A DNA stretch of 64,000 nucleotides, taken from the NCBI GenBank assembly GCA_963744145.1, contig CAVUSO010000001.1:6304001-6368000 (forward strand), in the 5' to 3' direction. Below the pieces are notes generated by a model, which saw nothing but the letters and a program-made list of their open reading frames with translations, was not told the origin of the DNA and did no database searches. Both the position numbers and the translations under genes were made by a program. Source of the stretch: an uncultured cyanobacterium (GTDB lineage: Bacteria; Cyanobacteriota; Cyanobacteriia; Cyanobacteriales; CAWUOF01). Shown piece after piece: positions 43,661 through 48,300 of this stretch; the stretch's first letter is position 1; every line of letters starts with the position of its first letter.

Positions 43661-46600
43661 TTATTTATCTTCATCAATAACACTTTTTAAATCTAAAGTC
43701 AATTGTCCAGGTTCTAAAAGCAATTCCTGTTGCACATAAACTACTTTGGCTTTAATCTCATCCATTGCTAACCATAAATTTAATAAGGCTTTTTCTTCAG
43801 GGATGCGTTTACGTTCGTCTCCGATGCGGGGGATAACTTTTAAGGCTATTTCCCAAGCTCGCATAAACCTATCATTGGTGATTAGTTCTGTGGCTTTCAT
43901 AAAACGGCGGATTGGTTCGATGGTTTGTTCTTGTTGATAAATAGCAATGATCGTGTGGAGTCCGTCAATCAGATAATGGGCAGAAAATTCATTGTCTACG
44001 ATCGAGAATGCGTGTTTTTTATAGCGTTGTTCAGGGCTGAGGAATTTACAAGTTCCGCTTTTGATGTCGAGGATTTTGTAACTTTTGCCTAGGTCAGCAA
44101 CATTGAAACCACCTACGGCTAGGGCAAGTTGTCGAGCGTCATCAAAGGGGAATTCGCGGGCGCGGAAAGCATCCCAAGCGAGGAAATACCATTGGCTAAC
44201 AGGGTCAAAACCCATGGTGTCAGTTTGAGCGAGTTTGCGGAAGCGGTAGTTAGCAACAGCTTTGCGAGCTTCAGCAAATGCAACTTCGGGGCGGACTTCG
44301 TTACCTGTACTATCAAGAACTGGCCAGGAGCGGGAAAAGACATTGAGAGCGGGACCAAAGGCACTGAGATAGAGATCGATCCCTTGAATATCATTGTCTT
44401 CAAATTCTGGGGCGCGTTGTTCGACTAGATTGGAGACTTCGGGGCGGAGGTCATCCCACCAGGCTTGTTCGGCGTTGGGGTCGCGTTTGCGGCACACAAG
44501 TAATACTGTACTAGCGACGGAGTTCTTTTGGGCTTGGTGGAGGTTTTGCGGGTTTTCGGTGCTGACTGACCATGATGCGGTGATCTCAAAGCCTGCATTA
44601 ATTAAGGAATATGCTAGGGTATCCCATGCTCCTGATTCTTTGTGATTGAATTGCACAGTCATTACCCCATCTTCTCGTAAGACGCGATGATATTCGGCAA
44701 ATGCCATTGCCATTTTTGCTTCATAATCTTGGTTAGCGAGTTCTTCGGGGGATACTCCCATATTGCGAAAGCGTGAGGGATTGGCTACGGCTTCGCGATC
44801 TTTGTCGGTGAGTTCCATCCAGAAGAGATCGGGGAAGATATCGCCGAGGGTGCGTTTTTGCCAAACATAGAAAAAATCTGATAGTTCAGCGTATTGGATG
44901 GTTGCGTAATAAGGTGGATCTGTGATAATTACATCTACTGAGTTATCAGAAATATGAGAAAGGTTATCAGCAGAAGCGGAGAAAATTTCAAGAGAATTTG
45001 TCCTTGTGGGTCGGGCATCTTGCCCGACATTTCCGATGACATTTCCCCTATCCTCAAACAAATCATTATTTGTTAATAGTTGTTCATTAGTTTCAGCAAT
45101 TGACAGGCTAGAAGCCTGTCCCACAATTTGAGATTGCCATAGGAAAACATAATCTTCAGGGGTTAGAGATAAACTGGCTTTTACAGGATTTTGCCTGATA
45201 TATTCCCAAGTATTAAAAAACTCTCTTTCATCTCGAATAATTCGATCATATCGGCGATCCTGCCAAACAGTACCAATATGATTCATCACCTTTGAAATTT
45301 GTTTAGCTGTATAGCTTTTAATACTGTGTAAAATATTTGCTGATGTCCAATATTCTCCCTCATTTTTTGATAATGGTTCCAACAATAAATGCACATGGTC
45401 AGGCATAACCACTGCACAGTATAACTGATATCTTTGATCATTAAAGAATCGACAAGCATCTAAAACAATTTGTCTAGCTTCAAGTGTTAACTCAATTCTC
45501 TCAATCGTATTGAAAGTAATAAAGTATATAGAACCATTCAGTTCCCAGTGTGGAAGTGTACCCCAATTGCTGTAAGTAATTTTCAAGTTTGGATTTAGAT
45601 ATATTTCATCATCATCATTCCTTGTGGGTCGGGCATCCTGCCCGACATTTCCACCATCATCATTAACAATCAAACTGCCATTAATAACTAAATTATTGTT
45701 ATGAGTAGCTAATTTGTTATGATCATTGGTAATTGACAGGCTAGAAGCCTGTCCCACAAAATTAAGATTAAAAAGTATTCTGTTATCCTCCGTACCTAGC
45801 AAATTACAAAGATTTTGATAATCTGAGGCAAAAGCATCAGCACAGGAATTCCAGAGTTCACCTTTCCCACTAATTTCTGGATAATTCCACATTAAGTTTA
45901 ATGAGTGTTGTGCAGATGCTGTCTTAGAGCCGGCTCTTGAGGAATCCCAATGGGCTAACCTACAATTCGTGTCAGCACAACGATCTAATACTAACCCTAA
46001 ATAAGTGGCGATCGCCTCAACTTTATTCTGATAGTATAATTCAATATTTGCGATCGCCCTCTGGATATCCTCTACTTCTGGATTAGATTTTAATTTGGCG
46101 ATCACTGTTTCTTTTTCTTCTTCACATTCATCCTGAATTAGTGATTTTGCTTCATTGATAATTTCTAAATATGTAACAAGAGTTAAAAGTTGGCGAGAAT
46201 TGAAATAATCTAGGCTTTTTGCTAAACCATAAGCAATACATCTATCTGAAAAACCATCAAATCTTTCTTCTACTGGCAAAATTCCACTTGCTTTTAAATA
46301 ATCTAACTTCTCATTCAAATAAATTACTACTTTATTAATTCCGTCAATATCGATCTGAGTTGGTATTCTAAAATCTAAACTAGCTTTGCCTTTACGATAG
46401 GCTACAGCATACAAATGATGTCTAAAATTACCCGCCAAAGCTTGAGATTTAATTACATCATCTTCGATCACATTGTCGCAATTAGGACATCTACCAACGC
46501 CCCGACCAATAGTAGTTGTTGTATCCGGATCATATTCTCCATCATCAGTTTGAATAGTTGTTCCTTTTCCCTTCTTCCCCTTCACCAATTCAAAATCAAC

Positions 46601-47341
46601 CCGCTTATTCTCAGGGTTAGGAATTGGCTTGACTGCACACCATTTATGTAAATTCTGCTTTTCTGGACGTTTATATAACCACCAATTCGGACTCAAAGGT
46701 ACAACCGATTCACAATTCGGACAAACCACCGTATGTGCCCACAGATAATTCTGTACAGTTTCCCCAGGTAAAGAAGGGAAAAACTCCGCTAATCTTTTCT
46801 CGGCTTCATCACCTACCCACTTCACCCATTGATCAATATCCTGCTGCAAATCCGGTCCAAACTTTAGGGGATATTCCATCGCAGCTTTCATCGTCACAAC
46901 AGCGACAGGATTCAGATCCGATGCTAATACATTAAACCCATATCTTGCTGCTTCAAAGGGAATACTCCCACCCCCCGCAAACGCATCTAAAACTGTAGGT
47001 GTACGAGTTCCCCACAATTTTTCACAATAATCCTGCACCTTTTTAATTCTCAATTTACCAGGAGGTGTTTTATACAACTTAATATCAGGATCTGGTTTCA
47101 AACCTTCTTGTTCTGGGTACAAACCTAACAGATATTTAAACTCCTCCATTGTTACATCCCCAGGTAACAAGGAAGCTAACACACTGGCTCGACTAAAGGA
47201 CAAAGGTTTGCGCGAATACCACCGATGTAAACCCTTAAACGGATTACCCCCATGTTCGTAATATACCTGCTCGTTGAGTAACTTCACGGGCATAATTTTT
47301 TCAATAAAAACTTGAGGACGGTGGGAACTAGAGTTAGTCAT
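43661..47341 (-). CDS. DUF1156-family adenine DNA methyltransferase with an in-frame RAYT transposase domain
   Basis: LHRWYSRKP, LDAFAGGGSIP (motif I), CPNC Zn ribbons and TDPPYY (motif IV); inserted residues about 529-780 contain an HUH-Y1 transposase. Confidence 0.9.
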   Translation of the reverse strand: MTNSSSHRPQVFIEKIMPVKLLNEQVYYEHGGNPFKGLHRWYSRKPLSFSRASVLASLLPGDVTMEEFKYLLGLYPEQEGLKPDPDIKLYKTPPGKLRIKKVQDYCEKLWGTRTPTVLDAFAGGGSIPFEAARYGFNVLASDLNPVAVVTMKAAMEYPLKFGPDLQQDIDQWVKWVGDEAEKRLAEFFPSLPGETVQNYLWAHTVVCPNCESVVPLSPNWWLYKRPEKQNLHKWCAVKPIPNPENKRVDFELVKGKKGKGTTIQTDDGEYDPDTTTTIGRGVGRCPNCDNVIEDDVIKSQALAGNFRHHLYAVAYRKGKASLDFRIPTQIDIDGINKVVIYLNEKLDYLKASGILPVEERFDGFSDRCIAYGLAKSLDYFNSRQLLTLVTYLEIINEAKSLIQDECEEEKETVIAKLKSNPEVEDIQRAIANIELYYQNKVEAIATYLGLVLDRCADTNCRLAHWDSSRAGSKTASAQHSLNLMWNYPEISGKGELWNSCADAFASDYQNLCNLLGTEDNRILFNLNFVGQASSLSITNDHNKLATHNNNLVINGSLIVNDDGGNVGQDARPTRNDDDEIYLNPNLKITYSNWGTLPHWELNGSIYFITFNTIERIELTLEARQIVLDACRFFNDQRYQLYCAVVMPDHVHLLLEPLSKNEGEYWTSANILHSIKSYTAKQISKVMNHIGTVWQDRRYDRIIRDEREFFNTWEYIRQNPVKASLSLTPEDYVFLWQSQIVGQASSLSIAETNEQLLTNNDLFEDRGNVIGNVGQDARPTRTNSLEIFSASADNLSHISDNSVDVIITDPPYYATIQYAELSDFFYVWQKRTLGDIFPDLFWMELTDKDREAVANPSRFRNMGVSPEELANQDYEAKMAMAFAEYHRVLREDGVMTVQFNHKESGAWDTLAYSLINAGFEITASWSVSTENPQNLHQAQKNSVASTVLLVCRKRDPNAEQAWWDDLRPEVSNLVEQRAPEFEDNDIQGIDLYLSAFGPALNVFSRSWPVLDSTGNEVRPEVAFAEARKAVANYRFRKLAQTDTMGFDPVSQWYFLAWDAFRAREFPFDDARQLALAVGGFNVADLGKSYKILDIKSGTCKFLSPEQRYKKHAFSIVDNEFSAHYLIDGLHTIIAIYQQEQTIEPIRRFMKATELITNDRFMRAWEIALKVIPRIGDERKRIPEEKALLNLWLAMDEIKAKVVYVQQELLLEPGQLTLDLKSVIDEDK
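45003..45760 (-). mobile_element. REPtron-like unit (REP doublet, RAYT/TnpA-REP domain, REP doublet) in frame within the methyltransferase
   Basis: RAYT motifs LPHW, YFITF, VVMPDHVHLL, WQDRRYDRIIR and EYIRQNPVKA at about 45134-45585; REPs at 45006-45028, 45102-45124, 45624-45646 and 45735-45757. Confidence 0.88.
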
Positions 47342-47477: not shown

Positions 47478-47803
47478 TTTTGATCGTCATCTACCAGAAA
47501 ATATCATCAACGATTTGAGCAATCCAACTCCACCTCAAACTTCTGAAGAATTAGGCTGGTCTTCGGTTTTTTTTGAATAGATGAACCACCAAGGCACCAA
47601 GGCACTAAGGTTAGGAAGTTTGGTCCGATCGCTTCTTCGTGTCTTGGTGTCTTGGTGGTAAAAATCTCATGACTGTTACCTCTGAAGAATTAGGCTGGTC
47701 TTCTGGTTTTTTTTGAACAGACAGCAGGATGTTTAGCTGATGAGCTATTGGTGCGATATCCCCAAGGTGAATATGAGATCAGAGAGGAAATCGAATGATT
47801 TAC
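47478..47803 (+). pseudogene. Degraded antitoxin-like gene, internally duplicated, followed by a truncated ATGATTTAC start
   Basis: EELGWS.GFFEQTAGCLADE.LVRYPQGEYEIREEIE-stop with frameshift; direct repeats at 47542-47580 and 47681-47720. Confidence 0.5.
47585..47659. repeat. Hairpin element built from 9-mer CACCAAGRC units
   Basis: ACCACCAAGGCACCAAGGCAC ... GTGTCTTGGTGTCTTGGTGGT. Confidence 0.7.
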
Positions 47804-47817
47804 AGAGGATTTCTATA

Positions 47818-47956
47818 TTGATGAAGTACAGTAAGATTGTGGGACAGGCATCTTGCCTGTCAGTCAGTTAAAGTCGATTGTGATTGATCTGTGTTGGTTG
47901 GGCGGGTTTATGATGGTGATCGGTTTGTCACAAAATTAATTGGTGAACCCGCCCCT
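47818..47956 (+). repeat. About 140-bp dispersed composite repeat, copy 2
   Basis: Contains an intact REP GTGG-GACAGGCA-TCT-TGCCTGTC at 47839-47861 and runs out into AACCCGCCCCTAC. Confidence 0.8.
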
Positions 47957-48300
47957 ACAAATCCCGGTTAATTGTAATCATAAATTTATCGACCATCTAT
48001 TATGATCATCTAATTTAATCTTGATGGTCTGGGAATTATTCCCTTGGTCATACAATTGCACCGCCCAACCTTACAGATCACATGGATGAATCCACCCCAT
48101 CTGACTAACGGAGATGGTTAAAATTTAATATATTTATTTTGTCTATAGCTTTGAAACAGAGAAAGAGTATAGCGATCGATCATAACTCCCGAATTTTCAT
48201 AAATTGCAGCGATCGCACATTCAAATTCAATCCTAGCAAACTGCACCAGATCACCAACGACCTGGGGTGTTAATTCCCACTTGCTCTGCTAGTCAGAATT

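Follow-up and report, generated by a model that had tools for sequence, protein, structure and literature searches.

A nuclease-coding element can sit in frame within a conserved or essential gene, as inteins with homing endonucleases do. REP-associated tyrosine transposases (RAYTs, also TnpA-REP) and their repetitive extragenic palindromes (REPs), together called REPtrons, are by contrast known as free-standing genes, present in single copy and kept for reasons that are unexplained (PMC5581495). The Escherichia coli enzyme is a monomer (PMC3479197) that cuts single-stranded REPs at sites set by their GTRG feet (PMC8266576). Subclass 2.7 of Quentin et al. 2018 (PMC6006769) is marked by DHVH, WQ and YIRQNP motifs and, in a supplementary table, by long GT[AG]G-footed REPs on both sides; long proteins were dropped from that study as ‘gene fusions or annotation errors’, and the words ‘fusion’, ‘methyl’ and ‘synthetase’ are absent from two of its supplements. 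Palindromic repeats that are read in frame inside genes have been reported as short peptides, from intragenic REPs (Di Nocera 2013, PMC3733652) and from Rickettsia palindromic elements (Delihas 2011, PMC3184786). Here we describe a window of 64,000 nucleotides (the whole stretch analysed; contig CAVUSO010000001.1 of assembly GCA_963744145.1, positions 6,304,001 to 6,368,000) from an uncultured cyanobacterium, in which a complete subclass-2.7 REPtron lies, judging by its motifs, in frame within a DUF1156 methyltransferase, with the motif sets of both proteins intact.

The cassette and its host protein

The host open reading frame (ORF) occupies 43661..47341 on the minus strand, as do all features below unless a plus strand is given, and runs through 1226 codons with zero internal stops. 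By its sequence, the encoded protein (P0001) is a DUF1156 N6-adenine methyltransferase resembling MtsC of the type-2 BREX-related (BR type-2, Gao_RL) systems, now characterised as MANTIS (bioRxiv 10.64898/2026.09.23.753747), and HmaB of PADLOC. It has in common with them the DUF1156 N-terminus, the S-adenosylmethionine-binding motif I FAGGG (aa 121-125, 46967..46981), also found in MtsC, a variable central stretch (about aa 301-527, 45761..46441) that by analogy to MtsC would be the target-recognition region (TRD), and motif IV, DPPY (aa 808-811, 44909..44920). Its score against the NCBIfam equivalog for this MtsC, NF042963, is 218 bits, below the cut-off of 1000. The names of its homologs point to cyanobacteria, and a promoter scan returned 21 sites against 14.5 +/- 4.0 in shuffles, which is not an informative excess.

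The REP-RAYT-REP cassette (45006..45757, 752 bp between outer REP ends) sits in the loop before DPPY, between the putative TRD and motif IV, and makes this loop 249 aa longer than in empty alleles. Its RAYT core (aa 598-733, 45143..45550) displays the HUH motif H649-V-H651 (45389..45397), WQDRRYDRIIR at aa 693 and the catalytic Tyr714 within YIRQNP (45200..45202), matching the [ND]HVH, WQ and YI[LR][NQ]NP motifs of subclass 2.7. The same residues 598-733 are recognised by the NCBIfam profile for REP-associated tyrosine transposases, NF047646 (95 bits, cut-off 80), while the IS200 profile NF033573 scores only 16.8-19.8 bits against a cut-off of 55; the cassette is also single-copy, whereas IS200/IS605 elements would form multiple near-identical copies. 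A profile built from free relatives finds E. coli TnpA-REP (PDB 4ER8) at E 1.3e-12.

Bracketing the RAYT are four 23-nt, GTGG-footed hairpins arranged as two inward-facing doublets (fold z-scores -3.9 to -5.4). The first doublet consists of REP A1 (45735..45757; 8-bp stem, translated VGQASSLS) and the inverted REP B1 (45624..45646, plus strand; read as VGQDARPT on the gene strand), the second of REP A2 (45102..45124), identical to A1, and the inverted REP B2 (45006..45028, plus strand), one base off B1. They are related to the genome-wide REP family, in variants private to this place in the genome. In contrast to known REPtrons, the RAYT has neither a start nor a stop of its own and would be translated inside the host enzyme: there is no Met and no stop within the insert, which has an in-frame TTG at aa 586. 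In-frame reading is what the cassette has in common with intragenic REPs and Rickettsia palindromic elements, from which it differs in that a whole transposase, with 249 extra residues and under purifying selection (below), is read through. A preliminary description of this ORF had already reported one uninterrupted 1226-aa frame with FAGGG at about aa 121 and DPPY at aa 808, a domain with HVH, WQxxxYDRIIR and YIRQNP (Y714), two flanking REP doublets, and the lack of an ATG or stop with only a TTG preceding the domain; each of these elements was found where it had been placed, its proposed RAYT profile search gave the NF047646 match above, and its assignment of a DUF1156 methyltransferase and a REPtron to one polypeptide, with both active-site motif sets intact, holds.

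No intein family or Hint splicing domain occurs among the Pfam or NCBIfam matches of the window protein at E <= 0.01, and the nuclease is an HUH enzyme acting on single-stranded DNA and dependent on REP hairpins. Empty alleles mostly lack such hairpins, so that the evidence does not support homing in the classical sense. A true intein, of the LAGLIDADG type, is present in the homolog P0351 at another site, just past the DPPY region.

The junctions of the cassette are blurred, in that it takes the place of about 15-20 residues of the empty-allele loop, and comparison with the empty paralog, homologs and GTDB alleles revealed no target-site duplication or clean excision boundary. A scan of a collection of genome contigs with this single insert as query returned one weak locus.

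In an AlphaFold model of the window protein (mean predicted local distance difference test, pLDDT, 68.5; predicted template-modelling score, pTM, 0.54), aa 601-740 reach about 64-96 pLDDT per block; the flanking arms (aa 514-598 and 737-821) fall below 50, as does the DPPY region. The top fold match of this model is 4ER8 (E 7.7e-5), and no methyltransferase was retrieved at E <= 0.001. The RAYT is thus predicted to adopt the fold of E. coli TnpA-REP, folded separately between disordered, REP-encoded arms.

Loop content and constraint across relatives

We measured the spacing from the WNYP-like motif to DPPY in 126 proteins (118 homologs plus 8 known carriers), eight of which lacked one of the motifs and were left unmeasured. 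Among the 118 measured, the loop is empty in 106 (70-85 residues), holds a RAYT in 8 and a DUF559 nuclease in 4, and in the unbiased best 120 homologs two contain a RAYT and four DUF559. The DUF559 (Vsr-like) cassettes of P0267, P0274, P0287 and P0361 come with repeat-like peptides of their own, different from those around the RAYT cassettes. With ENA/JGI and the representative set included, a RAYT occupies the same loop in 11 other proteins and in the genome G681. Empty-site orthologs, including a paralog in the same genome, and further RAYT-in-methyltransferase fusions, both of which the preliminary description had proposed to look for, are therefore at hand. Two further observations concern these loops: a second loop, the site of a RAYT in P0005, is occupied in P0267 and P0274 by an insert made of repeats only, and in P0264, P0294, P0301, P0303 and P0305 an otherwise empty loop carries a short VRAFRETPL-type peptide, which, judging by protein sequence alone, may be the translated REP of another family.

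Loop content does not follow the backbone. When the C-terminal backbones are placed on a tree (120 rows, with 11 short or DPPY-less rows left out), the RAYT label requires 9 changes for 10 carriers, and sister pairs unlike in content include P0001/P0263 (RAYT/empty, support 100), P0015/P0274 (RAYT/DUF559, 99), P0004/P0300 (94) and P0016/P0361 (90). Near-identical backbones with unlike loops are also found, P0002 and P0003 on the one hand and P0287, P0368 and P0369 on the other. The same-loop RAYTs themselves fall into two supported clades of 4 and 7 members. Taken together, the two clades and the switching of content between near-identical backbones suggest that the cassette entered the loop once or twice and then moved among backbones, most simply by homologous recombination, and the loop reads, at the level of sequence, as a permissive slot with exchangeable content.

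Selection was estimated from the DNA of G681, G572 and the window, over 145-147 RAYT codons. The ratio of nonsynonymous to synonymous divergence (dN/dS) of the embedded RAYT is 0.09 for the window against G681 (dS 2.0), 0.15 for the window against G572 (dS 1.2) and 0.04 for G681 against G572 (dS 1.2), next to 0.05 for the C-terminal part of the methyltransferase and 0.6-1.1 for the linker arms (21-54 codons). The embedded RAYT is under purifying selection, and the arms keep only their frame. Among same-loop RAYTs, identity is 58-92%, the frames are open and no catalytic residue is lost; across all 157 fused RAYT domains that we sorted, the two His and the Tyr are kept in 157, 157 and 155, respectively. 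In 29 same-host clades, the frequency of change at columns conserved in free RAYTs relative to variable columns is 0.11, compared with 0.14 in free RAYTs, a value that is circular; five rows labelled ‘unk’ were left out of the fused and free counts. The host domain shows no excess decay, P0001 having 9 differences at 446 covered conserved methyltransferase columns, where 69 empty homologs have a median of 6 and reach 26 at most.

The RAYT clade is found in frame well beyond this family. Searching long proteins for this domain yielded 122 matches, of which the best 120 were used; in 150 length-unbiased representatives, among which clustering inflates the fused share, the domain is internal in 28 and has a long one-sided extension in 16. 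The 157 fused domains sort into 29 host/site classes, with host labels assigned from Pfam, PADLOC and BLAST to proteins of the window's genome (G000). DNA methyltransferases account for 70 (DUF1156 41, at six sites; BREX PglXI-like 22; type IIG-like 7), tRNA synthetases for 43, RdgB for 15, PurH for 13 and others for 16; two host names, GcvP and AroK, are our presumptive assignments. Within the cyanobacterial RAYT clade, all named hosts are DNA methyltransferases or an EVE domain. Free loci of the clade lie near a gene of a DUF499-DUF7680-methyltransferase-helicase operon in 8 of 44 distinct cases (duplicates removed by hand), all eight in one 14-member subclade (support 99) that groups weakly (82) with the clade of the window. 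These eight (L019, L054, L057, L062, L071, L075, L177 and L179) are separate genes inside or beside such operons, often between DUF7680 and the methyltransferase.

Whether such fusions were already catalogued had been left undecided in the preliminary description. In databases they are: JGI names such as ‘adenine-specific DNA methylase/REP element-mobilizing transposase RayT’ already show the fusion. No account of whole RAYTs in frame was found in the literature searched, whose coverage excluded most subscription papers; the main text of the BR study (PMC12839542) contains no ‘HUH’, ‘transposase’ or ‘RAYT’, and its supplement may list such architectures. In-frame whole RAYTs are real and recurrent and apparently undescribed.

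Genome setting

A cassette-free, uninterrupted paralog is encoded in the same genome at C1:1949330-1952266, with 84% and 92% amino acid identity over the two halves. It belongs to an operon of a DUF499 ATPase, DUF7680, the methyltransferase and a PLD-SNF2 helicase, an arrangement shared with type-2 BREX-related systems (PMC12839542), where the small gene is DUF3780 instead of DUF7680. The window segment 43600..48206 is homologous (89-95% DNA identity) to the methyltransferase gene and upstream DNA of this complete operon (C1:1948609-1952328), and no ATPase, co-factor or helicase gene is present around the window methyltransferase, which departs in this respect from BR type-2/MANTIS. As MANTIS methylation needs MtsA and MtsB (bioRxiv 10.64898/2026.09.23.753747), the window copy could work only in trans. 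Its putative TRD is mosaic relative to the paralog: 90-column windows there show 54-77% identity, with two at 93-94%, and most windows flanking the TRD are at 91-100%, which suggests that the two enzymes have different target sequences.

DUF1156 is encoded at four more loci, at 1.94, 6.66, 6.87 and 7.16 Mb of C1, all of them close to a DUF499-like gene or pieces of one; a free RAYT of another subclass adjoins the one at 6.66 Mb, and a stray C-terminal fragment of the window methyltransferase is found at C1 5323774-5323992. Upstream of the gene, at 47839..47861 (plus strand), is an intergenic copy of the genome-wide master REP, inside a composite repeat of about 200 bp (window 47800-48030) with more than 100 partial matches. 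The genome holds 227 REP copies, 188 of them identical to this master, and 77 neighbouring REP pairs stand head-to-head with spacers of 15-19 nt in all but one; a pattern search gave 224 REP matches, and no other RAYT exceeds the NF047646 cut-off. A 21-nt tandem array at C1 6885400-6886400 has several open frames inside a long ORF.

We considered REP abundance as a sign of activity of the embedded RAYT and rejected it. Among same-order genomes, at least 50 REPs occur in 11 of 25 that have a clade match but also in 25 of 104 that have none (hand tally), and the carriers G681, G572 and G470 have only 6, 6 and 4 pattern matches.

Competing readings and meaning

The reading we favour, and consider probable, is that the subclass-2.7 REPtron is an intact-motif, non-splicing passenger domain inside an anti-phage methyltransferase rather than part of a dedicated methylase-nuclease fusion. 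The RAYT would be made only as part of the host polypeptide, using the host's promoter and ribosome-binding site, and could act from within it, given that TnpA-REP is active on single-stranded REP hairpins as a monomer. Its spread would be due for the most part to homologous recombination, in which it moves along with the variable specificity region between alleles of defence operons that are themselves transferred horizontally; landing in a new gene would be rare. In-frame copies would persist because frame-breaking insertions are purged from hosts that are essential or that shield the cell against its own restriction effector; the methyltransferase would tolerate the domain without needing it. 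Of the two possibilities raised in the preliminary description, a persisting coding insertion fits better than a fusion that couples methylation to REP processing, because the loop is mostly empty, its content switches, and the same clade occurs in unrelated housekeeping enzymes; the dN/dS values, however, mark the insertion as more than a tolerated, neutral one.

Several observations weigh against the passenger reading. The window methyltransferase is an orphan without ATPase, co-factor or helicase, and the methyltransferase core is not resolved in the structure model (pTM 0.54, DPPY region below 50). The dS values of 1.2-2.0 are near saturation, and part of the divergence may predate embedding; a single origin of the same-loop RAYTs is neither shown nor rejected (approximately unbiased test, p-AU 0.09). 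In the same-loop clades the conserved/variable change ratio rises to 0.33, compared with the lower values in all fused and in free RAYTs, so that constraint may be relaxed in this loop. The two same-loop alleles from GTDB genomes both show damage. In G572 the frame is broken within the first REP and the allele is spread across two contigs; in G681 about 88 aa are missing near the C-terminus and the frame changes. (At the junction of the G681 deletion, L180 about 8640, we observed GCGATCG, which we take to be a HIP1-like sequence.) Decayed copies are moreover under-sampled, because matches were selected by RAYT similarity. At the DNA level, fusion is the minority state in the sampled genomes and metagenomes, with fusions in 1 of 31 matches in a sample of 401 phylum genomes, long frames in 3 of the 59 matches from 401 genomes of the order, to which the broken G572 allele is added, and fusions in 7 of 80 metagenome loci; L079, L135 and the 313-aa frame of G653 are long and were not counted as fusions, having no recognisable host. 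Finally, passenger behaviour incompletely explains the skew toward methylation-defence hosts.

It is this skew, with 70 of the 157 fused domains in DNA methyltransferases and no named host in the cyanobacterial clade other than these or EVE, that speaks for functional coupling, in which the RAYT, tethered as it is, nicks its own gene in single-stranded form at the REPs, directly next to the TRD, and promotes recombinational specificity exchange, or serves as an accessory nuclease, in BR/MANTIS, BREX and type IIG systems. The cassette does adjoin a mosaic TRD, MANTIS specificity is switched by TRD exchange alone (bioRxiv 10.64898/2026.09.23.753747), and 8 of the 44 free clade loci have an operon gene nearby. 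However, these eight share one subclade and may represent one ancestral event, and the operons carry other cargo too. That cargo includes what are presumably small toxin-antitoxin-like genes. An unrelated DUF559 cassette occupies the same loop, most alleles are empty with an equally variable TRD, and the RAYT clade is equally found in ValRS, PurH and RdgB; we therefore regard coupling as unlikely, though worth keeping in view. It is tempting to speculate further that the embedded RAYT is active and, being self-tethered, diversifies specificity by nicking its own gene at the REPs by the TRD, which drives the exchange of methylation specificities in BREX-related and type IIG systems, that the loop is a shared slot for hairpin-guided nucleases (RAYT or DUF559), and that embedded non-splicing transposases form a distinct class of mobile element; to this extended proposal we give slightly less credence still.

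Alternatively, the in-frame state may not be the working state, the cassette being lost from the DNA by excision, or the RAYT arising from an internal start or by proteolytic release from its arms, so that an ordinary methyltransferase, a free transposase or both result. The in-frame TTG and the long arms, which are predicted to be disordered, would suit such a scenario, as would the empty alleles beside filled ones on the backbone tree and the known REP-guided cutting at dinucleotides on both sides of the REP (PMC8266576). Yet there is no stop after the RAYT, so that an internal start would yield a fusion of RAYT and methyltransferase C-terminus; no intein family matches, and the blurred junctions offer no cleanly excisable boundary, which makes release or excision doubtful. 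The orphan status of the window copy beside an intact paralog, the two damaged GTDB alleles and the departure of P0001 from 2 of 26 columns conserved in free RAYTs could instead point to a recent neutral accident, a REPtron in frame by chance in a redundant gene and now decaying. We consider this improbable and, for the lineage, largely refuted: same-loop RAYTs stay similar, open and catalytically intact, the G681 carrier is the resident methyltransferase of a full operon, and the dN/dS range of 0.04-0.15 is at odds with the neutral evolution that the preliminary description had named as counter-evidence. An assembly chimera, in which repeats would have linked a methyltransferase gene to a free REPtron, hardly deserves credence. 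REPs do break assemblies, and the 3′ junction is not bridged in the sequencing runs compared. Over 45260-45998, however, a stretch that includes the 5′ junction, a contig of run X1, which could be the source sample, shows 0 differences from the window, the REP variants of the cassette occur nowhere else in the genome, and the same architecture recurs in the 11 other proteins and G681, so that the misassembly feared in the preliminary description is not borne out.

This locus contributes a loop of a defence enzyme that occurs naturally in three states (empty, RAYT and DUF559), a direct dN/dS estimate and an empty paralog in the same genome, in a host family whose biochemistry has just been worked out, which makes the passenger reading testable here. 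Fused genes are often named ‘REP-associated tyrosine transposase’ in databases, and the host enzyme is thereby hidden. A start-less, stop-less RAYT carried unspliced in essential or self-protecting enzymes would offer a concrete route to the persistence and spread of this family, whose maintenance as free-standing genes has lacked an explanation, and the present findings suggest that RAYTs can persist as passengers inside other proteins.

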